This document shows, piece by piece, positions 5,445 to 26,352 of a stretch of 64,000 nucleotides of DNA. The notes under the pieces were generated by a model. It was given only the letters and a program-made list of their open reading frames with translations, searched no databases and was not told the origin of the DNA. Source of the DNA: Flavobacteriaceae bacterium (GTDB lineage: Bacteria > Bacteroidota > Bacteroidia > Flavobacteriales > Flavobacteriaceae); NCBI GenBank assembly GCA_045047075.1, contig JASFYP010000022.1:23654-87653 (forward strand), given 5' to 3'. The first letter of the stretch is position 1. Every line of letters begins with the position of its first letter. A program made the translations under genes and the position numbers.

Positions 5445-6639
5445 AAAAGCATCTTCACCATTTAGCAAAGAACAATTAATGCCTCAGGCAGAAATGCTTG
5501 AAGTAGCTCGAGAAAAAGGAGAGCTTTTTATTGGAATTCCAAAAGAATATTACGCACAAGAAAAACGAGTTTCCTTAACGCCAGATGCTGTTTCAGCATT
5601 AACTGCTCACGGTCATCGTGTTGTTATTGAAACCGGTGCAGGTGAAGAATCTAACTTTTCAGATTCCGAATATTCTGAAGCTGGAGCTAAAATTGCCTAC
5701 GATATAAAAGAAGCTTTTGCATGTAAAATTGTTTTAAAAGTTGAGCCTCCTTCGTTTGAAGAAATTGAAATGATGCATCCACAATGTGTCTTATTTTCTG
5801 CACTTCAATTAAAAACACAATCAAAAAAATATTTTGAATTATTAGCTAAGAAAAGAATCACAGCAGTTGCTTTTGATTTTATTAGAGATAGTACAGGAGC
5901 TTATCCTGTAGTGAAATCTTTGAGTGAAATTGCAGGAGTTGCATCAATACTTATCGCAAGTGAATTGATGAGCTCTGACAAAACTGGTAACGGTTTATTG
6001 ATGGGGAATATCAGCGGAGTTCCTCCTACCGACGTTGTAATTATTGGTGCAGGAACTGTCGGTGAATTCGCAGCTCGTTCTGCAATTGGACTTGGTGCAA
6101 GAGTAAAAGTCTTTGACAATTCCCTTTCTAAATTAAGACATATTCAGCGGAGTTTGGGTAGTTTGATTTACACATCTACCATCCAACCAAAAACTTTACA
6201 AAAAGCATTAATGCGCTGTGATGTGGCTATTGGTGCTATTCGTGGTAAAACCAGATCTCCAATTATTGTTACCGAACAGATGGTTGAAAACATGAAAGAT
6301 GGGGCTGTAATTGTTGATGTAAGTATTGACCGTGGGGGCTGTTTTGAAACCTCGGAAGTCACGTCGCATAAAAGTCCAACTTTCGAAAAATACGGAATTA
6401 TTCATTATTGCGTCCCTAATATTCCGTCTAAATATGCGCGGACCGCCTCGGTATCTATCAGTAATATTTTTACTCCATATCTCTTAAACATTGGTGAAGA
6501 AGGTGGTTTTGAAAATGCTGTAAGGTTTGATAGAAGTCTACAAAAAGGCATGTATTTTTACCACGGAATTCTAACCAATAAATCTGTTGCTGATTGGTTC
6601 GGACTTCCTTTTAGAGATATTAATTTACTGATTTTATAA
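5437..6639 (+). CDS. ald: Alanine dehydrogenase-family protein (non-canonical active site)
   Basis: IGIPKE, EKRVSLTP, GAGTVG NAD-binding loop, DVSIDRGGCFETS, HYCVPNIP; ATG 5437 overlaps tsaE end. Confidence 0.7.
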   Translation: MSKKASSPFSKEQLMPQAEMLEVAREKGELFIGIPKEYYAQEKRVSLTPDAVSALTAHGHRVVIETGAGEESNFSDSEYSEAGAKIAYDIKEAFACKIVLKVEPPSFEEIEMMHPQCVLFSALQLKTQSKKYFELLAKKRITAVAFDFIRDSTGAYPVVKSLSEIAGVASILIASELMSSDKTGNGLLMGNISGVPPTDVVIIGAGTVGEFAARSAIGLGARVKVFDNSLSKLRHIQRSLGSLIYTSTIQPKTLQKALMRCDVAIGAIRGKTRSPIIVTEQMVENMKDGAVIVDVSIDRGGCFETSEVTSHKSPTFEKYGIIHYCVPNIPSKYARTASVSISNIFTPYLLNIGEEGGFENAVRFDRSLQKGMYFYHGILTNKSVADWFGLPFRDINLLIL

Positions 6640-6719
6640 ACCTCAATTGCACTACTTGTACCCTATACTATATTGCAAAACGAGTACTCTTATTTATTTG
6701 TTAGCACTTATTAAAAAAA

Positions 6720-7298
6720 ATGGAACGATTGACTAAATTTATAGAAAAGAATATTTCAGGGAAAAAGGTCTTAGGGCTTTTTATCTTGACCAATGTTGTT
6801 TATCTCTTTATGCTGACTGTTACAATTCCTAAAACAATGGAATTCTCTAATGGAATGAAATTATTGGATATGATGCCCACTGGATATGATTTGAATTATG
6901 TAAGTGAATTATTCAATTATCTTGGAGAAAATGGACGTGAGACTTATCTAACCAGCCAAATACCTGTGGATATGATTTACCCGTTACTTTTCGGACTTTC
7001 TTACTGTTTGCTTTTTGGGTATTTCTTAAAAAAACTAAACAAACTCACTAGCCCATATTTATATTTATGCCTACTTCCTGTAATTGCAGGAATTTCAGAT
7101 TATTTGGAAAATATAGGAATAATTGTAATGTTGAACAATTATCCAGACCTGACAGAGACTACGGTTAATGTAACTAATATTTTTACAGTTCTAAAAAGTA
7201 TTTCAACAAGTATATTTTTTATTACTTTGATAGTAATCTTAATAATACTTGGGATTAAATTCGTGAAAAAAAATAAAACAAGTGCTAACACCTTCTAA
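6720..7298 (+). CDS. Hypothetical membrane protein carried in a cassette-like unit
   Basis: 192 aa, about four hydrophobic segments; LLDMMPTGY, GRETY, DMIYP, DYLEN motifs; no family recognised. Confidence 0.8.
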   Translation: MERLTKFIEKNISGKKVLGLFILTNVVYLFMLTVTIPKTMEFSNGMKLLDMMPTGYDLNYVSELFNYLGENGRETYLTSQIPVDMIYPLLFGLSYCLLFGYFLKKLNKLTSPYLYLCLLPVIAGISDYLENIGIIVMLNNYPDLTETTVNVTNIFTVLKSISTSIFFITLIVILIILGIKFVKKNKTSANTF

Positions 7299-7333
7299 AA
7301 TTAATTGCTTGGTACAAGCCTACTTACGAAAAT

Positions 7334-7538
7334 CCTGGGCAAACTCATGCTTTTTTATAAAAAACATGATAAGACACGAATTTCACTAATTGCACAAATA
7401 AATGAATTTAATTCATTTAAAACCCACGTGATTTTAACCAAAAAAAATACATAAAGATAAAAATCTAAAGATTTTTAAAAAAATTAGTGGACATTCGTGA
7501 AATTAGTGTCTAAAAACACAAGTATGAGTTTGCCCTGG
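7334..7538. mobile_element. 205-bp MITE-like element with 19-bp terminal inverted repeats and 7-bp target duplication
   Basis: Left cctgggcaaactcatgctt (7334-7352) vs reverse complement of right end ccagggcaaactcatactt (7520-7538), 17/19 identical; cgaaaat directly flanks both sides (7327-7333, 7539-7545); no ORF. Confidence 0.7.
7372..7511. repeat. REP-like inverted repeat pair nested inside the MITE
   Basis: agacacgaatttcactaat (from 7372) vs attcgtgaaattagtgtct (to 7511). Confidence 0.65.
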
Positions 7539-7713
7539 CGAAAATCCTCACGAATTTTCTATTCGGTTTGTATTTGCTAAATTTGTTACTTAAACAACGC
7601 AACTAATCTTATACAAGACCGATACCTTTAGAATTTAAATACTATCCATACAACTTATCAATTCATAAAAAAGAGTATATTTGATTCACTAAATATAATA
7701 ATTAGTATACCCT

Positions 7714-8367
7714 ATGTCAATTGCTGATAACCTGCAACTAATCAAAAAAAATATTCCAAAAAAAGTTACGCTTGTAGCTGTTTCTAAAACAAAACCCATT
7801 ACATCTATTATCGAAGCCTATGATACAGGGCAACGGGTGTTTGGAGAGAATAAAATTCAGGAAATGGTTGATAAGCAATTACAACTTCCAGATGATATCA
7901 AATGGCATATGATTGGCCACTTACAACGGAATAAAGTAAAGTATATGGCCTCTTTTGTAAGTTTGATTCATGGTGTTGACAGCATCAAAACTTTAAAGGA
8001 AATAAACAAACAAGCCAAGAAATACAATAGAGTTATTGATTGTTTGCTACAGGCTAAAATTGCTGTAGAAGACACCAAGTTTGGTTTGTGTGGAATCGAA
8101 ATTGCAACCATATTAAATTCACCAGAAGTAAAAGAATTCGAAAATATTAAGATTGTTGGATTGATGGGAATGGCAACTTTTACAGATGATAAAAAACAAG
8201 TTCAAAAAGAATTCAGAACATTAAAAGAATTGTTTGATAAATTCAAAGAAAACCATCAACAACTCAAAATAATATCTATGGGGATGAGTGGTGATTTTAA
8301 ACTCGCCATTGAAGAAGGTAGTACTATGATTAGAGTAGGAAGCTCGATATTTGGAAGTAGAAATTAA
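7714..8367 (+). CDS. yggS: PLP homeostasis protein YggS/PROSC
   Basis: LVAVSKTK, FGENKIQE, WHMIGHLQRNK, GLMGM, SMGMSGDF, GSTMIRVGS.IFG. Confidence 0.95.
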   Translation: MSIADNLQLIKKNIPKKVTLVAVSKTKPITSIIEAYDTGQRVFGENKIQEMVDKQLQLPDDIKWHMIGHLQRNKVKYMASFVSLIHGVDSIKTLKEINKQAKKYNRVIDCLLQAKIAVEDTKFGLCGIEIATILNSPEVKEFENIKIVGLMGMATFTDDKKQVQKEFRTLKELFDKFKENHQQLKIISMGMSGDFKLAIEEGSTMIRVGSSIFGSRN

Positions 8368-8401
8368 TTTATAAACAAGCCCTAAAATAGATTCAAAATA
8401 A

Positions 8402-9481
8402 GTGTACGTAATTTTAGATATAGAAACCACTGGAGGAAAATATAATGAGGAGGGAATCACTGAAATTGCTGCCTATAAATTTGATGGTCACGAAATTGTT
8501 GACCAACTAATTACACTTGTAAATCCTGAAAAAGAAATTCAACCTTTTGTTGTTCGTCTCACAGGTATTAATAATGGGATGCTTAAAAATGCACCCAAAT
8601 TTCATGAAATTGCAAAACGGATTGTTGAGTTTACTGAAGATGCTATTATGGTTGCACACAATGCAAATTTTGATTATCGCATTTTAAAAACAGAATTTAG
8701 ACGTTTAGGTTTTGACTTTAAGAGAGAAACGCTATGCACCGTTGAGCTTACCAAAAAATTAATTCCTGATTTAGAATCTTATAGTTTAGGTAAATTGTGC
8801 AAAATCCTTTGTATCCCTGTTTCTAACAGGCATAGAGCAGAAGGTGATGCCTTAGCTACTGTTAAATTATTTAAATTGTTGATTGATAAAGATGTTGATA
8901 AAGAAATCATTAAAAGTAATATTAAACAGGGTGTAGAAAAAGAACTTCCTTCAAAATTGCAAAGCATCTTAGATGATGTCCCATCAAAAACAGGCGTTTT
9001 TTATGCACATAAAGAAAATGGAGATATCCTATATATTGGAGAAGGAAAAAATATGAAGAGAAGTGTAAATAAACTCTTTTTAAAAACTTCAAAAAAAGGA
9101 AAACTGTTACAAGAATCTTTAAGCTCTGTTTCTTATGAAGAAACTGGAAACGATTTAATAGGAAAGCTAAAATATTACAACGAGTTGATGATTAATAAAC
9201 CAAATTTTAATTTTTACTTCCCTAAAAAAGTGGGTGCAACAGCCTTAAGTAATCCTAACTTACTCATTATAGATAAGGGGCGACATACCGGAGAAAAATC
9301 AGTAGTACTTGTTGAAAATGATAAACTACTGGGTTACTGCTTTGTTGACTTGGCTTACCAAATAGAGCATATCGAAGTATTAAAATCGTTGTTAACTCCT
9401 ATAAAAAATAGTCAAATGAATCGACATGTTTTTAAAACCTATCTGCAAAAAAATAAAGTAGAAAAAATTGTTAGATTTTAA
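8402..9481 (+). CDS. DEDDh 3'-5' exonuclease (DNA Pol III epsilon-like) with degenerate GIY-YIG domain
   Basis: LDIETTG, VAHNANFD, HRAEGDA; then GVFY...LYIG. Confidence 0.85.
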   Translation: MYVILDIETTGGKYNEEGITEIAAYKFDGHEIVDQLITLVNPEKEIQPFVVRLTGINNGMLKNAPKFHEIAKRIVEFTEDAIMVAHNANFDYRILKTEFRRLGFDFKRETLCTVELTKKLIPDLESYSLGKLCKILCIPVSNRHRAEGDALATVKLFKLLIDKDVDKEIIKSNIKQGVEKELPSKLQSILDDVPSKTGVFYAHKENGDILYIGEGKNMKRSVNKLFLKTSKKGKLLQESLSSVSYEETGNDLIGKLKYYNELMINKPNFNFYFPKKVGATALSNPNLLIIDKGRHTGEKSVVLVENDKLLGYCFVDLAYQIEHIEVLKSLLTPIKNSQMNRHVFKTYLQKNKVEKIVRF

Positions 9482-9510
9482 TAAAACTATCAATTAGCCA
9501 ACAAAGATTT

Positions 9511-11478
9511 ATGAAAAAAATTGCAATCATCCTTCTATTCTTTTTGTGTTTTCAAGCATTTAGTCAAAAGAAAAATGACGATTATGAATTTGGAAATGTA
9601 AGCCCACTAGAATTAAATATGACTGTTTATGAAAAAGATACTACTGCCAATGCTGTTGTTTTATATGAGCATAGTTTTTCAAAATTTATTAAGAAAAATA
9701 ATCGAATACATTTGCAAACTACAGTTTACAGGAAAATAAAATTTCTAAACAACCGTGGTTTCAAAAATGCTACAGTTGAATTAAACTTGTTTAAAATTAA
9801 ACATGTAAAAGAAAAAGTCTATAAAATAAAGGGGGTTACCCACAATGGCAAAAATAAAACCTATTTAAAAGAACAAAATATTTTTAATACTGAGCCTCGA
9901 ACAAACTTATTAAAAACTACGTTCACATTACCAAATGTAAAAGATGGCAGCGTAATAGAATATACTTATACAATTGAATCGCCCTATATTTATAAACTAA
10001 AGAGTTGGCATTTCCAATCGTCAATTCCAAAAGTGAAAAGCATTTTTGTTGCTAAGATTCCGCAAAAATTTTTCTACAATAGAAAATTAATTGGTGATTT
10101 ACAATTGGTAGAAAATTCTGCAGATATTCAAAAAAAATGCTTTTATGTTTCTGGTGAAGACTCAAAAGCATATGCGTGTGAAGTTCTAAGATACAGCATG
10201 GAGAATATCCCTGCATTTATTACAGAATATTATTTAACTTCAAAAAAAAACTATATTGCTCGTATTGAATTTGAATTATCGCAATACAGAAAGGACTTAG
10301 GTGCAACAAGAATATATTCATCAACATGGAAATATGTTGAAGATAACATAAATAAATATTTTGGGAGTCAACTAAATAAAACTAATTATTTTAAAAATGA
10401 AATACCTCTATATATCTTATCAGAAAAAAACAAATTAGAAAGAGCTAAAAAAGTTTACTTCTTTATTCAAAATCATTTTAATTGGAATAATCAAAATTGG
10501 AATCAATCTGAAATATATGTCAAGGATGCATTTAAAAAGGGTGTAGGGTCTGTAGATGAAATTAACATATCTCTTATTAATTCCCTTAATGCTGCCGGAA
10601 TTGATTCAAAATTAACTCTCTTATCTACTAGGAAAAATGGTATTCCAGTAAAAACATATCCCGTAATTTCTGATTTTAATTATATTATTGCAAAAATTGA
10701 AGTTGATGGTAAATCTATATTTTTAGATGCTACAGATAAATCATTGCCTTTTGGAGTCCTTCCTTTTAGATGTTTGAACGGAGATGCTAGAGTTATGGAT
10801 TTTAAAAACGGCAGCTATTGGGAAGAAGTAAAACCAATAGATGATACAAAGCTAAAAATTAATATGCTACTTCAATTAAACAAGAATGACGAAGCTATTA
10901 AAGGTAAATTAAGAATTACTCGTTATGGGTATGAAGCTTTAGATTCACGAAAAAAATACAATTTACTTAAGGAAAAAAAATATTTATCAAATATTGAAGA
11001 GCGAAATGAAAATATTTTAATTGAGAGCTATTTAAACAAAAACCTCGATGAAAAAGAAAAACCATTTATTGAGAAATTTGAAATTACAATTGAAAATGAC
11101 AATACTATTGGAGATAAAATAATTTTAACCCCTTTCTTTATCAACCCTCTAAAAGAGAATCCTTTTAAATTAGAATCACGTTTATATCCTGTAGATTTTG
11201 GGTATCCAATAAAAAATAATTTTGTTATCACTATTGTCATACCAGAAAATTACATAGTAGAGTCTATGCCTACAAATAAAAATATTGCATTGCCAAATAA
11301 TAAAGGGATGCTTAACTATTCATCAAATCATGAGAATAATAAAATAAGTATCAATTTTAAATACGCAATTAATGCCACGGTGTTTAAGAGTGATGAATAC
11401 CTAAATTTAAAAGAGTTTTTCAATCAGATAATACTTTCACAATCCGAACCTATTATTTTAATTAAACAGACCCGTTAA
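9511..11478 (+). CDS. Secreted DUF3857 / transglutaminase-like domain protein (paralogue 1)
   Basis: Signal peptide, DTTANAVVLYE, LPNVKDGSVIEY.Y, W.FQ..IP, LSTR.NG, LDAT, YPVDFGYP. Confidence 0.85.
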   Translation: MKKIAIILLFFLCFQAFSQKKNDDYEFGNVSPLELNMTVYEKDTTANAVVLYEHSFSKFIKKNNRIHLQTTVYRKIKFLNNRGFKNATVELNLFKIKHVKEKVYKIKGVTHNGKNKTYLKEQNIFNTEPRTNLLKTTFTLPNVKDGSVIEYTYTIESPYIYKLKSWHFQSSIPKVKSIFVAKIPQKFFYNRKLIGDLQLVENSADIQKKCFYVSGEDSKAYACEVLRYSMENIPAFITEYYLTSKKNYIARIEFELSQYRKDLGATRIYSSTWKYVEDNINKYFGSQLNKTNYFKNEIPLYILSEKNKLERAKKVYFFIQNHFNWNNQNWNQSEIYVKDAFKKGVGSVDEINISLINSLNAAGIDSKLTLLSTRKNGIPVKTYPVISDFNYIIAKIEVDGKSIFLDATDKSLPFGVLPFRCLNGDARVMDFKNGSYWEEVKPIDDTKLKINMLLQLNKNDEAIKGKLRITRYGYEALDSRKKYNLLKEKKYLSNIEERNENILIESYLNKNLDEKEKPFIEKFEITIENDNTIGDKIILTPFFINPLKENPFKLESRLYPVDFGYPIKNNFVITIVIPENYIVESMPTNKNIALPNNKGMLNYSSNHENNKISINFKYAINATVFKSDEYLNLKEFFNQIILSQSEPIILIKQTR

Positions 11479-22267: not shown

Positions 22268-22292
22268 TAAATCTTATTTGTATTCACAAGAA

Positions 22293-22380
22293 AAGAGGAA
22301 TGAATGACGAAGTGATCTTTACAATTTTAATTGGATAAATTAATGAGATTGCTTCTTCTCTTTCGGAGAATCGCAATGAC
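22293..22380. repeat. REP-like inverted repeat (gaggaatgaatgacgaagtgatct ... gagattgcttc..tcgcaatgac)
   Basis: Between convergent genes; right arm complementary to the purL-internal copy at 54429-54456. Confidence 0.65.
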
Positions 22381-22388
22381 GAAGACAA

Positions 22389-22877
22389 TTATTTCTTTTG
22401 AAACAATTGCTTTAAAATAATAAAAACAGATGCTGTAAAAGTAAAAGTCATCAAAAAACCAGAAAGCATGATGACATATTTAAACCAGAGTACTCCTGAC
22501 CATAGAATATAGATTCCTCCAAAAGTTAATAAAATAGAAGCAAAAGGCTCCACCATTAAAAACACTTTTAACTTCATATTGATGCTGGTTGTCGAAACTA
22601 TAATTGCCAATATAAAAAATATGACAGACAGTGATAGCATATGATTATGCACCAATGTCAGAATTTCACGTTCTGATTTTTTGAACTTCATAGTGGGTGC
22701 ATCCTCAATATGTTCATTTCCTAAATATTGAGTTTCAACACCATCTGGACTCGCATCAGTAGTTTCATTTACAAATGAAATTCCCATAAAAAAACCGATA
22801 CTTAAAACAATGAGAAAAGAAACAATCAATAATTTTATTTCTTTTGGGAATGAATGAATGCTACCGTGTATCGTCAT
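22389..22877 (-). CDS. Hypothetical integral membrane protein with HxH motif
   Basis: 162 aa, about four hydrophobic helices, LVHNHMLSLS; abuts the upstream FMN-binding gene. Confidence 0.8.
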   Translation of the reverse strand: MTIHGSIHSFPKEIKLLIVSFLIVLSIGFFMGISFVNETTDASPDGVETQYLGNEHIEDAPTMKFKKSEREILTLVHNHMLSLSVIFFILAIIVSTTSINMKLKVFLMVEPFASILLTFGGIYILWSGVLWFKYVIMLSGFLMTFTFTASVFIILKQLFQKK

Positions 22878-23426
22878 TTAAAAAATATTTTCTTGTTCTA
22901 AAATCGTAATAGTTTGTAATAAATTATTAATAGCGATGGTCATTGATCTTGCTGAAATAGTTGCTCCAGAAATCGGTACAATCTCATTTCCATATACAAT
23001 TGTTGATGACGGTTCTAAACCATTAAACTGCTTAAGCCAACGCTTAGAACCAATCTCTGCACCATAATCTTCTCTGTATGCTATTAGCTTAGATTTTTTT
23101 ATAATTAAATCTACATCAAATAAAACAAGAAAATCAAATTCATCTGTTTTACTAGGTGCTTTTCCAAGGTATGCATAACCAATCAATTCATCATTCTTTA
23201 GTATCTTAAACAGATCGTCTTTATATATCTTTGTTTTTAGCTTGGAATTGGTAGCCTTATCAATCAATATCTCTTCTAATAAAACATCTTCTGCTTCAAA
23301 AGCAATTTTAATTTCTTTCCGTACTTTTTTATTCACACTTTTTGAAAGCTCTACAGAAGTAAATCCAAATTGAATTGGAATGACAATTAAGAAAAGAAAT
23401 AATTTTTTCATGTGTAAAAATATCAT
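22878..23426 (-). CDS. Exported FMN-binding domain protein
   Basis: Signal-like N-terminus, YRE.YG.EI, W..QF.G, ISGATIS motif. Confidence 0.85.
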   Translation of the reverse strand: MIFLHMKKLFLFLIVIPIQFGFTSVELSKSVNKKVRKEIKIAFEAEDVLLEEILIDKATNSKLKTKIYKDDLFKILKNDELIGYAYLGKAPSKTDEFDFLVLFDVDLIIKKSKLIAYREDYGAEIGSKRWLKQFNGLEPSSTIVYGNEIVPISGATISARSMTIAINNLLQTITILEQENIF

Positions 23427-23484
23427 GCTATTAATAGTTGAGCACCTTTGCAGTACCCAACTATTAATAACTAAACTAATTTAA

Positions 23485-24654
23485 CTAAAATGATACACCA
23501 ATACCAACATTGAATTGGTTATCTGGTTCTGCTCTAGCAACTGCATTATTTTTAATTTGATAATCAGCCTTTACAACTGCTCCGTGAGCCACTAGGAAAC
23601 TTAAGCCAAAAGTCCATTCCTCTCTATCATAGCTCAAATTTTTATCAACACCTCCACCCATTTTAGAGTTGGTATCATAGCTTTCATATCTCGTAAATCC
23701 CCATAATTCCATTTTTTTTTCTGAAGGCAATAAATTAAATGACGCTTCTAAATTCCAACCATACATTTGGCTCCCTAAATCAGATCCATACAAATTATTG
23801 TAAGCTTCGCTGTCTGAAACACTTGTACTAATTAACTCTCCTCTAGCTGCAAAACGCCCTAATCTATAACGTGCATCTAAACCAATCATAGTAATACCTA
23901 TATCAGCACCATCAAGGTCTTCATCATCTTCTTCTGGTTGTGAACGTCCAAAATATCCTGCCAATCCTAAACGCAATCCTTGAATTCCGTAATAATCTAC
24001 TTTTCCAGAAAATGTTGGTGTATTAAATGTTGATTCTGCTCCTTTCTGTCGTCCATTTCGTAAACCATTATTCCCTCCTAAATATTTATCACCATTAACT
24101 GATGCAAATCCGTTGAATATATAAGCTTGGTATTTTAAAGAAATATTATCGAATCTACCATAAATTCCTGCACCAATTTCTCTCCAAGTAGTTGGAACGA
24201 TAGACTTTGCTATACTTGGTCTTTCAACAGAATTAAAAGTTGTAGGTTCGTGGTATTCATTAATCGATCCCATTGGAACTAACATTAAACCTCCACGAGC
24301 GCTAATTTTATCGTTAAAACTATATTGCAAAAATGCTTGCTCTACAAATACTTCTTTAACATGCTCAAATTCCACTTCCGTAATAAACTGAACCTTATCA
24401 TTAAATTTATATCCAAAAAGTAAAACTAATCGTTGTACATCTAATTCACCATTTCCAGTTTCTGGCTGATTGTAAGTAATCTCTGCATATCCACCAACGG
24501 TAACTCCACTTTTAATGTTTCCAGATAAAATTCTCTCTGCAGAATTTTGCTGTAATTCTTCTAATTTCATTTGAGTTGAGTCTTTGAGTTTTTCAGTTTG
24601 AGCAGTTACCATAGTTGCAATTAATAATGCTGCAAATAAAGTTGATTTTTTCAT
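23485..24654 (-). CDS. Outer-membrane beta-barrel porin (OprO/P-like)
   Basis: Signal peptide, GGY.E, RLVL..GY.F, E.EFEH, EQA, amphipathic strands, C-terminal Phe. Confidence 0.75.
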   Translation of the reverse strand: MKKSTLFAALLIATMVTAQTEKLKDSTQMKLEELQQNSAERILSGNIKSGVTVGGYAEITYNQPETGNGELDVQRLVLLFGYKFNDKVQFITEVEFEHVKEVFVEQAFLQYSFNDKISARGGLMLVPMGSINEYHEPTTFNSVERPSIAKSIVPTTWREIGAGIYGRFDNISLKYQAYIFNGFASVNGDKYLGGNNGLRNGRQKGAESTFNTPTFSGKVDYYGIQGLRLGLAGYFGRSQPEEDDEDLDGADIGITMIGLDARYRLGRFAARGELISTSVSDSEAYNNLYGSDLGSQMYGWNLEASFNLLPSEKKMELWGFTRYESYDTNSKMGGGVDKNLSYDREEWTFGLSFLVAHGAVVKADYQIKNNAVARAEPDNQFNVGIGVSF

Positions 24655-24659
24655 TATTA

Positions 24660-24753
24660 TTATTTAGATTAATTTAAAATAGTATTTATTACTGCTACAA
24701 AAATATTATAATAAATGAATCTAACAAATCTTATTTAGATTTATTTTAAATAA
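24660..24753 (-). promoter_or_regulatory. Promoter with two palindromic operator-like boxes (Fur/DtxR-type candidate)
   Basis: -7 TATTTTTG (24698-24705) and -33 TTTG (24725-24728) with 19-nt spacer; boxes ttatttagattaatttaaaatag (24660-24682) and ttatttagatttattttaaataa (24731-24753). Confidence 0.65.
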
Positions 24754-24846
24754 AGATTTTACATCTTTATTATTCTGAAAAATGAAAAGAAAAAAGCCAA
24801 TAAGTTATAAACTTATTGGCTTGAATATAATAGTATTACAAGAATG

Positions 24847-26352
24847 TTAAAGTGTTTCTAAATAATTAATAACCACTTTCCTAATATCAATAGCTGCATC
24901 TCCGGGTCTATTTTCATAAACTTTTAGCATTCCTTCACTATCAGCTTTTAAAAATGGAATATCAAACCCTAGCAATAGATAATCAGTAAGAGCTACAGTA
25001 TAGATTTTATCTAATTTTATAGGCTCTCCCACTACTTCCCAAGTTTTAGTTTCGGCATTGTAATCAATATTATCACGTTGTAAATAAGCACCAGTCCCCG
25101 CTTTAAGCCTTCCATAATTAAGTGTTTTTTCTAGCAACTTCCCTGTCATATCTACTTTATTGATTCCTCCACCAAAAGGCAATACTCTAAAAATATCAAC
25201 ACCTGTAATATCGCCTATCAATTCATCATCTATCCGAATTGAACCACCATTTACAAAAGCACAATCAACTTCATAATTAAAGTTTGCTGACATCGATGCT
25301 GCAATTAATTGCCCCAAATTTGTTTGAATACTTCTAGTTTCCGTATCACGTCCGTCGAGTGGAACTTCGGCTTTGAAAACTACTTTATATGGATTATCTA
25401 ATATAAGTTTTAGTTTATTGTCTAATAAAACATTCCATCTCTGTACAATTCTCGTCACTTTTTTTGATGGTGTAACAGACTCATCTAGTGATACAAGTTC
25501 TGATTGAATTGTAGTTTTTTTAGTCGATTTATTAAAAGTAATTTTATGAACATATGCAGTTCTTGCATTGGCATCAGCTTTTGAAATTACCGCATCTCCA
25601 ACAGGCACCATCATATTTGTATGTTCGTGACCGCCAAAAATAATTGGGATATTAGGCATTGAATTTGCTAGCATTTTATCCTGAGCAATCGTAAGATGTG
25701 TTAAGCCTAGAACAAGATCAACCTTTGATTGTAAAGCTTTATTTGCATTAATGGGGTCTTGGTATAAATCACCATAATCTACATAATCTGTCGGAGTTGA
25801 GTTGATGGTTGAACTTATAAAACCAACACTCAATTCAGTTCCATCAGCATCTTTAAAATTAAACGTAACCGTTTTTGGAATAGGTGTTTTTGTACCGTTC
25901 TTTTCTATATAAAAAGGTTCTAATTTATCGCCTGTCTTTAATTTAATGTTGGTTGCTATCCATTGAAAATTTGATTCATTCAATCTATTTTGAAAGTCTT
26001 TATATTTTAAATCAAACTCATGATTTCCAAAAGCAACCAAATCAAAACCTATGGTATTCATCACTTCTACCATTTGTTTACCTTTATATCGCTCTCCATT
26101 CTCATCTTTCAAAGTTCCCAATAATGAAGGGTTTAAAAAATCCCCTGCATGTACCAACAAGGTGTTTTCATTTTCTTTTTTAATTGAATCATACAAAGCT
26201 GCAACACGTGCCAATCCGCCAACTTTGCCTCCACCTAGGGCATCAATTTCATAGATGTCGTTTACGTTGATGACTATAAATTCTAGTGTGTCTTCGTTTT
26301 TAGAACACGAAATTGAAAAGAGAATTACAAATAATAGGGCTAACTTTTTCAT
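24847..26352 (-). CDS. Bifunctional metallophosphatase / 5'-nucleotidase lipoprotein
   Basis: Lipobox SISC, NDIYE, HAGDF, GNHEFD, GLTH, GGHEH, NGGSIR. Confidence 0.9.
   Translation of the reverse strand: MKKLALLFVILFSISCSKNEDTLEFIVINVNDIYEIDALGGGKVGGLARVAALYDSIKKENENTLLVHAGDFLNPSLLGTLKDENGERYKGKQMVEVMNTIGFDLVAFGNHEFDLKYKDFQNRLNESNFQWIATNIKLKTGDKLEPFYIEKNGTKTPIPKTVTFNFKDADGTELSVGFISSTINSTPTDYVDYGDLYQDPINANKALQSKVDLVLGLTHLTIAQDKMLANSMPNIPIIFGGHEHTNMMVPVGDAVISKADANARTAYVHKITFNKSTKKTTIQSELVSLDESVTPSKKVTRIVQRWNVLLDNKLKLILDNPYKVVFKAEVPLDGRDTETRSIQTNLGQLIAASMSANFNYEVDCAFVNGGSIRIDDELIGDITGVDIFRVLPFGGGINKVDMTGKLLEKTLNYGRLKAGTGAYLQRDNIDYNAETKTWEVVGEPIKLDKIYTVALTDYLLLGFDIPFLKADSEGMLKVYENRPGDAAIDIRKVVINYLETL

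Follow-up and report, generated by a model that had tools for sequence, protein, structure and literature searches.

This analysis concerns three consecutive minus-strand genes in a 64,000-nucleotide stretch of DNA (the window) from a Flavobacteriaceae bacterium (assembly GCA_045047075.1, contig JASFYP010000022.1, positions 23,654 to 87,653), which encode a porin-like outer-membrane protein, a protein with an FMN_bind domain and a transmembrane (TM) protein of four helices that belongs to the family PF27139. Judging from its promoter and from the genes that accompany it in other genomes, this triad probably represents, in Flavobacteriaceae, an envelope module that recurs across the phylum and would be switched on by iron starvation. 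We consider it very likely that the module is controlled by Fur and is part of iron acquisition, and we hold with moderate confidence the explanation as a whole, including the reduction of ferric iron to feed FeoB. The host genome, assembled into 93 contigs, comprises 3.0 Mb at 32% G+C, and its nearest named relatives are Urechidicola species.

All three genes, as well as the promoter elements described below, are on the minus strand. The porin-like gene (23485-24654, 389 aa) is followed by the FMN_bind gene (open reading frame 22878-23426) and by the TM gene (22389-22877, 162 aa). For the FMN_bind gene, the second ATG, at 23411, is preferred and is most likely the true start, as suggested by the resulting product of 177 aa, the length that is seen in relatives. 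The ATG of the TM gene comes directly after the TAA of the FMN_bind gene, so that the gap between them is zero. The motif ISGATIS occupies residues 147-153 of the FMN_bind protein (22953-22973), and the motif HNH residues 77-79 of the TM protein (22641-22649). An earlier note on this DNA had described three co-oriented genes, the last two abutting, and the open reading frames were found exactly in this arrangement.

The promoter of the porin-like gene is bracketed by two boxes. Box 1 (TTATTTAAAATAAATCTAAATAA, 24731-24753, 31.6 bits) ends 2 nt upstream of a −33 element, TTTG (24725-24728), which was read from the sequence and is kept beside box 1 in relatives. The −7 element TATTTTTG, of the form TAnnTTTG (24698-24705), lies 19 nt after the −33 element, and box 2 (CTATTTTAAATTAATCTAAATAA, 24660-24682, 26.9 bits) is located in the leader, 15 nt from the −7 element, and ends 5 nt before the ATG. 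The arrangement between the boxes, TTTG-N19-TAnnTTTG, is the Bacteroidota −33/−7 promoter form. The boxes are direct repeats of 22-23 nt that are 91% identical, with a start-to-start distance of 71 nt; the two similar 23-bp palindromes that the earlier note had placed on either side of a −33/−7 promoter are thus exact at these positions.

When the box pattern was counted in the window only, the result was modestly above chance (3 matches vs. 0.75 expected, with at least as many in 3 of 100 shuffles). Because this count is weak, the choice between chance and real sites was decided by comparative evidence, for which the orthologous locus was taken from 40 other Flavobacteriaceae genera. The upstream regions carry both boxes in 37 of the 40 genera; in 35 of these 37 loci, the start-to-start spacing is 70-74 nt, i.e. 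about seven helical turns, and, likewise in 35 of the 37, TAnnTTTG is found between the boxes. Box 1 is inverted in four genera, and because such inversion is tolerable only for protein-bound DNA, the box is taken to be a DNA site rather than an RNA element. A weight matrix made from the boxes of the relatives only identified, in the 3 Mb of the host genome, 9 sites of at least 14 bits, the top two of which are boxes 1 and 2.

The identity of the putative regulator is indicated by comparison with Riemerella anatipestifer, where purified Fur shifted promoter fragments bearing the Fur box consensus ATTTAGAATTATTCTAAAT in electrophoretic mobility shift assays (PMC5609570). Box 1 matches this consensus in 17 of 19 positions and box 2 in 15 of 19, with the shared palindrome core ATTTAGA-N5-TCTAAAT. 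In the same species, the promoter common to rhuH and rhuR has a Fur box, and rhuH is derepressed when fur is deleted, when the Fur box is mutated and under low iron (PMC11967795). The assignment of boxes 1 and 2 as predicted Flavobacteriales-type Fur boxes is supported by these matches, and a single Fur homologue is encoded in the host genome (tblastn).

The genes preceded by this type of box elsewhere point in the same direction. When run on the 40 relatives with one mismatch allowed, the pattern TTATTTA-N7-TCTAAATAA produced 490 matches compared to 140 for a reversed-pattern control. Inspection of 40 non-triad box sites from seven relatives' genomes revealed a recurrent box 11-17 nt before feoA of feoA-feoB, as well as boxes directly 5' of genes for TonB-dependent receptors and an imelysin-like lipoprotein, of divergent receptor/DUF6607 pairs, of hemA together with a divergent AraC-type gene, and of nqrA, a cytochrome c gene and sufA/iscA. 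The DUF6607 protein of one relative (locus L043) is a close homologue of the haemophore RhuH (PDB 8xjc, E = 1.4 × 10−91). Metal repression, which the earlier note had proposed together with a search for the box upstream of feoAB and TonB receptor genes, is thus supported both by the fit to the Flavobacteriales Fur box and by the motif marking feoAB, TonB receptors, rhuH, hemA and nqrA in relatives, i.e. by a positive outcome of that very search.

In the host genome itself, the sites ranking next after boxes 1 and 2 precede nqrA (24.2 bits), hemA, fumC, sdhC and a cytochrome c gene; the same box type at respiratory genes implies that Fur would also control respiratory genes here. The host feoA gene has the box core TTTAGAAcgATTCTAA beside its −7 element, a site missed by the first weight matrix owing to differing flanks, and the host regulon list is thus incomplete. 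The nqrA site, the third-best in the genome (contig C25:9766-9788), lies ~100 nt 5' of nqrA and precedes a TTG-N19-TAAATTTG promoter, and nqrA is preceded by boxes in two relatives as well (L074 and L079). Na+-NQR, a flavinylated, iron-poor NADH dehydrogenase, may be under Fur control in Flavobacteriaceae.

The second line of evidence is the conservation of the triad and the company it keeps. The TM protein is found, once per genome, in 88 of 201 Flavobacteriaceae genera, and the TM family profile, when applied across the phylum, detected it in 43 of 401 genomes and 32 of 180 genera. The FMN_bind and TM genes are adjacent in all 41 Flavobacteriaceae loci, with a full porin gene ahead of them in 39, and in most of the 20 loci of other families, the order is again porin, FMN_bind, TM, with overlaps of 1-4 nt. 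In the gene-neighbourhood survey called for in the earlier note, the three genes thus occur together in all but two of the 41 Flavobacteriaceae loci and in most sampled loci of other families. Further out, the neighbouring genes (an HMG-CoA-lyase-like gene and guaB) reflect housekeeping synteny and are uninformative on function.

Several of these loci are extended operons. In L100, the gene order is Fur, an FTR1/FtrD-like fusion, porin, FMN_bind, TM and ApbE; in L092, FTR1/FtrD, porin, FMN_bind and TM are followed by a 336-aa Tat-signal protein with the size of an ApbE; and in both L096 and L091, the order is FeoB, porin, FMN_bind, TM, ApbE. The triad adjoins a FeoB-like protein, known by its N-terminal sequence only, in L090, L089 and L104, is followed by ApbE in L088, and adjoins a Tat-signal protein, again with the size of an ApbE, in L102, L095 and L086. 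A gene fusion complements these arrangements: in a survey of 220 cluster representatives of the TM family, drawn from a library of 1.8 billion proteins, one representative continues from the TM domain into a fifth hydrophobic segment and on into a complete ApbE domain. The link of the module to flavinylation and iron transport is drawn from such repeated gene fusion and operon membership, not from the window locus alone, and the trans-envelope redox or iron-uptake module envisaged in the earlier note gains support from this context, in which the triad recurs across the phylum joined to ApbE, FeoB, FTR1/FtrD and Fur.

The FMN_bind protein of the window matches PF04205 with 21.5-21.6 bits (E = 3.5 × 10−4), and all 41 members of its family match at E ≤ 1 × 10−3 (best E = 7 × 10−11). 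Compared with TIGR01947 (rnfG), the protein yields E = 7 × 10−5 and 23 bits, against a cut-off of 102, and the family profile matches RnfG itself (PDB 9eri_G, E = 0.005), with ISGATIS aligned to the flavinylated ITGSTIT. No variation is seen in GAT(I/L)S, either within Flavobacteriaceae or in the 18 loci compared from other families; the predicted acceptor is T151 in S148-G-A-T151, and the residue before GAT varies between S, T, A and V. In the canonical NqrC/RnfG motif, Dxx[S/T]GAT, an Asp stands three residues before [S/T]GAT. The earlier note had remarked that this Asp is replaced (VPISGAT), which is a real, family-wide trait; an acidic or polar residue is found two positions further upstream of the canonical Asp position. 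The N-terminus, MKK followed by a hydrophobic stretch, reads as a signal or an anchor.

As previously noted, the window contains no apbE gene; two ApbE genes are present elsewhere in the host genome, on contigs C2 and C32. Flavinylation of the FMN_bind protein, another of the earlier proposals, is plausible given the invariant GAT(I/L)S and the presence of ApbE, here in trans and in other families in cis; the missing Asp counts against it. On contig C2, ApbE (326 aa) is clustered, at 5734-9941, with DUF3078 (342 aa), thioredoxin-like (143 aa) and DUF3570 (484 aa) proteins, and this cluster is predicted to be another envelope system associated with flavinylation; modification of DUF3570 by ApbE is proven (PMC8238504). 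The second ApbE of the host genome is encoded by an isolated lipoprotein gene.

The TM protein of the window and all of its 120 listed relatives are filed in the database annotation under PF27139 (Aq_1264_TM), a family without an assigned function. The AlphaFold2 (AF2) model consists of four TM helices and a short periplasmic helix (predicted local distance difference test, pLDDT, 83), and H77-N78-H79 are located roughly one helical turn below the point where helix 2 ends on the periplasmic side. Among distant PF27139 members, only G53, H77 and H79 are invariant, and THxH is invariant in the members compared; within Flavobacteriaceae, E110-P111, TFGG, Y123, W126, S139-G140 and M143 are kept as well. 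There was no match of the TM sequence profile to the Protein Data Bank (PDB); the fold search of the model against PDB produced nothing better than E = 1.3, with generic four-helix bundles only, and the Pfam scan produced chance-level matches only (Claudin_2, E = 0.011, and Ost5, E = 0.37). The TM protein is outside the published flavinylation-associated membrane classes, i.e. the NapH-like, MsrQ-like, PepSY-like, DsbD, NqrB/RnfD-like and DUF4405 classes, as defined by the Pfam families PF12801, PF01794, PF03929/PF16357, PF02683 and PF03116 and by DUF4405.

In two PF27139 members (L097:6395-7279 and P0379), the periplasmic loop is larger by ~100 residues and contains CxxCH (NCVRCH and GCYDCH, respectively), which suggests attachment of a c-type haem; there was no Pfam cytochrome match for this loop. 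No FMN_bind or porin gene lies beside the PF27139 gene in L097. P0379 had been considered as a candidate TM + FMN_bind fusion, which was rejected (hhalign probability 0.2%), the extra segment being the CxxCH loop. Such a loop would fit the flavin/cytochrome interchange of Meheust et al. and hints at redox chemistry on the periplasmic side. As to the binding of haem or metal by the HxH protein, which the earlier note had proposed, signs of a redox role come only from the unvarying THxH and from the CxxCH loops of these two relatives.

The porin-like protein has a signal peptide and a C-terminal Phe, and its AF2 model contains ~18 predicted strands, at low confidence (pLDDT 52.6). No match of the porin family profile was found among PDB sequences, and the window protein has no Pfam match, PF07396 included, at E ≤ 1, whereas most of its relatives at 65-90% identity carry database matches to PF07396 and/or PF13609. 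It is the most conserved member of the triad (~65% identity across genera, vs. ~63% for the TM protein and ~52% for the FMN_bind protein). Two conserved motifs, TEVEFEH in an alternating strand and NEYHEP in a loop, would line the lumen and would suit cations or metals better than phosphate.

The transcription architecture of the locus is more complex than a single operon. A hairpin between the porin and FMN_bind genes (23427-23471, minus strand) has a 20-bp stem and a T-rich tail (−28.6 kcal/mol), and an equivalent hairpin is found in most Flavobacteriaceae loci; it is probably a terminator or attenuator that would set the porin-to-partner ratio. In the intergenic regions of many Flavobacteriaceae (L002 and L005-L044), TAnnTTTG is found 3-6 nt before the ATG of the FMN_bind gene, and an extra Fur box precedes this gene in L002, L028, L031, L033, L035, L036 and L042, which suggests a second promoter in relatives, with a nearly leaderless transcript. 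In the window, the FMN_bind gene is preceded only by a weakened −7-like element, TATTTTTA, and no −33 element is visible. Because the hairpin and only this weakened element precede the FMN_bind gene, the porin is probably made in excess, and the FMN-TM pair through read-through or from a weak internal start. Thus, of the three-gene operon initially proposed, adjacency and co-orientation stand, whereas the terminator-like hairpin splits the porin from the other two genes; the description is over-simple for Flavobacteriaceae and accurate in other families of the phylum.

This split is the starting point of the first alternative, under which the FMN-TM pair, regulated by iron, would reduce haem or other imported ferric complexes in the periplasm and the porin would be a Fur-regulated unit of its own, a general pore for iron or nutrients, that is merely adjacent. 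Apart from the hairpin and the second promoter of many Flavobacteriaceae, in some cases with its own Fur box, it can draw on loci in which the porin is missing or decayed. In Urechidicola croceus (L006:5560-6470), which is placed in the host's own genus, the porin has been reduced to a remnant that has lost its start and retains ~100 codons, and both the dual Fur-box promoter and the FMN_bind and TM genes behind the remnant are intact. In L043 (3318-7480), a TonB-dependent receptor gene is divergent from the genes for RhuH (DUF6607), FMN_bind and TM, two Fur boxes occupy the region that separates them, and the porin is missing; in L085 (7028-8978), DUF6607, FMN_bind and TM follow in this order, also without a porin. 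However, the porin-FMN-TM order across many families, with genes that overlap by 1-4 nt outside Flavobacteriaceae, is hard to explain without a shared function, and it is the porin that is the most conserved of the three proteins. We therefore consider this alternative unlikely. Porin-less variants, with the FMN-TM pair behind a RhuH gene and a TonB-dependent receptor, suggest that an FMN-TM reductase pair is the core of the module, in which case the outer-membrane entry would be exchangeable; haem iron may be a substrate of this pair.

From these observations we infer Fur binding at this promoter, flavinylation, the direction and source of the electrons, the TM-protein cofactor and the porin substrate, and the following scheme is proposed. 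In iron-replete cells, Fe-Fur would bind both boxes, one abutting the −33 element and the other in the leader, and their separation by about seven helical turns would suit cooperative binding or looping. When iron is scarce, much porin would be made, and soluble iron, as Fe2+ or small Fe3+ complexes, would enter the periplasm; the FMN_bind and TM proteins would be made in lesser amount, via hairpin read-through or a weak internal promoter. An ApbE encoded elsewhere in the genome would flavinylate the membrane-anchored, RnfG/NqrC-like protein on Thr151, and the PF27139 protein would pass electrons, probably from the quinol pool via a THxH-based site, to the covalent FMN. The quinol pool appears to be the most plausible electron source because the PF27139 protein is without a cytoplasmic donor domain. 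The FMN would then reduce Fe(III) to Fe(II) (in RhuH-linked variants, the iron of haem), and the Fe(II) would be imported by FeoB or, in other lineages, by FTR1/FtrD.

Several observations weigh against this scheme. The score of the window FMN_bind protein, 21.5 bits, is just under the Pfam gathering cut-off of 22, and no family member has the canonical Asp of Dxx[S/T]GAT, while the residue before GAT is variable. In the TM protein, H77 and H79 would be unable to ligate one cofactor within a monomer because they are two residues apart on one helix, and the module encodes no cytoplasmic electron donor. The porin model is of low confidence and relatives of the porin are annotated as anion (phosphate) porins, and the terminator-like hairpin, together with the second promoter in relatives, splits the porin from the FMN_bind and TM genes. 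As for the importers, FeoB is present in 188 of 201 Flavobacteriaceae genera, so that co-occurrence with FeoB is uninformative, and FTR1-type partners usually require iron oxidation, not reduction.

The last point leads to a second alternative, in which electron flow is reversed: the flavoprotein-TM pair would take electrons from periplasmic Fe(II) to the membrane pool, and would thereby serve FTR1/EfeU-type permeases or limit Fe(II) toxicity. It is well established that uptake by the FTR1 family is coupled to Fe(II) oxidation, as in Fet3/Ftr1, EfeUOB and the FtrABCD model, where FtrD is the electron sink, and the triad follows an FTR1/FtrD-like fusion in L100 and L092. However, an FTR1 homologue was not found in the host genome, where FeoAB is present, the sampled loci tie the triad to FeoB, an Fe(II) importer, more often than to FTR1, and a flavin is a poor Fe(II) oxidant compared to copper or haem centres. 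Reversed flow thus appears doubtful.

A third alternative is an iron-sparing respiratory replacement, whereby the flavoprotein-TM pair would, under iron starvation, stand in for an iron-rich electron carrier of the periplasm or membrane, as flavodoxin does for ferredoxin, and would have no direct role in uptake. This possibility is raised by the boxes that precede nqrA, sdhC, fumC, the cytochrome c gene and hemA in the host genome, and by the CxxCH loop that takes the place of pairing with the flavoprotein in some members of the TM family, as though flavin and haem were exchangeable. However, it leaves unexplained both the porin and the repeated operons with FeoB, FTR1/FtrD, Fur, RhuH and TonB-dependent receptors, and there is no conserved terminal oxidoreductase partner nearby; we consider it quite improbable.

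Directly upstream of the porin promoter, also on the minus strand, is a gene for a lipoprotein 5'-nucleotidase (Metallophos + 5_nucleotid_C, 24847-26352), which ends in an intrinsic-terminator-like hairpin with a 13-bp perfect stem and a T run (24794-24822, minus strand); this hairpin insulates the porin promoter from the 5'-nucleotidase gene. Shewanella UshA, a member of the same family, turns exported FAD into FMN in the periplasm, and the 5'-nucleotidase was considered as a core part of the module, in UshA-like FAD processing; the candidate was rejected, as no more than 7 of 42 loci (the window counted) have the gene beside the triad and the gene has its own terminator. On the other side of the triad, the spacer 3' of the TM gene (22268-22388) contains a GC-richer inverted-repeat sequence around 22345-22380. 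The remaining alternative, a phosphate or anion porin of the OprO/OprP type that would work with the secreted 5'-nucleotidase, the boxes being AT-rich chance repeats or sites of another regulator, can invoke the PF07396 matches of relatives, named phosphate-selective porins in some sources, the 7 linked loci and the box count in the window that is weakly above chance, but is hardly credible given that the boxes are kept in position, spacing and sequence in ~40 genera and fit an experimentally supported Fur box, that the 5'-nucleotidase is absent from the 35 other loci, that the window porin itself is without a PF07396 match and has lumen-side motifs that are acidic or His-bearing, and that the triad is linked to FeoB, FTR1 and Fur elsewhere.

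Reduction of ferric iron for FeoB by a Fur-controlled module accordingly remains the preferred explanation, and can be extended, tentatively, to a more specific proposal that we regard as somewhat more apt to fail than to hold. Under this proposal, the triad and FeoB would form a TonB-independent, envelope-spanning iron pathway specific to Bacteroidota and relatives, in which a Fur-controlled porin with an acidic, His-lined lumen would provide entry, PF27139 would represent a sixth, structurally new class of membrane partners that pass electrons to ApbE-flavinylated proteins, possibly oligomeric and leading from quinol to a THxH cofactor site, and covalent FMN would reduce Fe(III) or haem iron.

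Much of the organic matter in the iron-poor ocean is degraded by Flavobacteriaceae and other Bacteroidota, a group that also includes pathogens of fish and birds. Their known iron uptake consists of TonB-dependent receptors and FeoAB; to our knowledge, it is not known how Fe(III) becomes FeoB-ready Fe(II) in Bacteroidota. If the explanation is true, the module supplies this missing reduction step, with its own outer-membrane entry; PF27139 would be a new membrane-partner family for extracytosolic flavinylation-based electron transfer, and the compact, strongly conserved dual Fur-operator promoter would be an iron-stress marker in marine metatranscriptomes. A published description of the combination of porin, FMN_bind and TM proteins was not found in the literature (searched for FeoB/FMN-binding/ApbE/porin, Flavobacteria iron limitation and aq_1264).

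With respect to regulation, the closest known system is the Riemerella rhuH/rhuR-rhuA locus, where the same palindrome core occurs at −33/−7 promoters of iron genes (PMC5609570, PMC11967795), and in some relatives of the window locus, a RhuH-type gene directly precedes the FMN-TM pair. The window promoter differs in that it is bracketed by two boxes at a fixed spacing of ~72 nt and in that each box consists of one perfect and one weakened half-site; the regulation here is predicted.

The FMN_bind protein resembles RnfG/NqrC in its domain, its N-terminal membrane anchor and its GAT-motif Thr, which is flavinylated in RnfG/NqrC. However, it scores far below the cut-offs of these families and is without the Asp of Dxx[S/T]GAT, and the window locus is without RnfA-E or NqrA-F partners, the host nqr operon being on another contig.

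The Listeria PplA/EetA/EetB/Ndh2/FmnB system likewise has an extracytosolic flavinylated FMN_bind protein, the lipoprotein PplA, as well as an ApbE-like protein, FmnB. Electrons reach PplA by way of the quinone pool and small membrane proteins (EetA/EetB), and ferric iron can be reduced (in part after PMC9973259). Listeria differs in being Gram-positive, without an outer-membrane component, and in having dedicated NADH dehydrogenase and quinone synthesis genes; its membrane proteins are unrelated to PF27139, and its role is mainly respiratory.

The P19/FTR1 and FtrABCD systems couple an FTR1-family permease and an FtrD-like membrane protein to redox partners in the periplasm; P19 clusters contain FMN-binding genes, and, as described above, the FTR1/FtrD fusion directly precedes the triad in L100 and L092. 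In contrast to these systems, for which the proposed chemistry is oxidation, not reduction, no P19 or cupredoxin gene was noticed beside the triad, although no search was aimed at them, and no FTR1 was found in the host genome.

The closest functional parallel is provided by clusters of a PepSY-like (FoxB/VciB-type) protein, DUF2271 and ApbE, which are Fur-repressed in some species and for which a role in reducing iron before its assimilation has been proposed (Meheust et al. 2021, eLife, PMC8238504). As in those clusters, a small inner-membrane protein is paired with a periplasmic protein that is flavinylated (here, predicted to be), and there are ties to outer-membrane importers and ferrous transporters. 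The differences extend to each component: an RnfG-like FMN_bind protein here vs. DUF2271, a porin vs. a TonB-dependent receptor, and, as the membrane partner, the PF27139 protein with four TM helices and a single invariant THxH vs. PepSY_TM with four haem-ligating His. PF27139 is outside the five membrane classes of 2021 (Meheust et al.) and the DUF4405 class added in 2024. The Fur box is already known; what sets the module apart is the PF27139 membrane-partner family, which has no described function, and the dedicated porin as the outer-membrane part.

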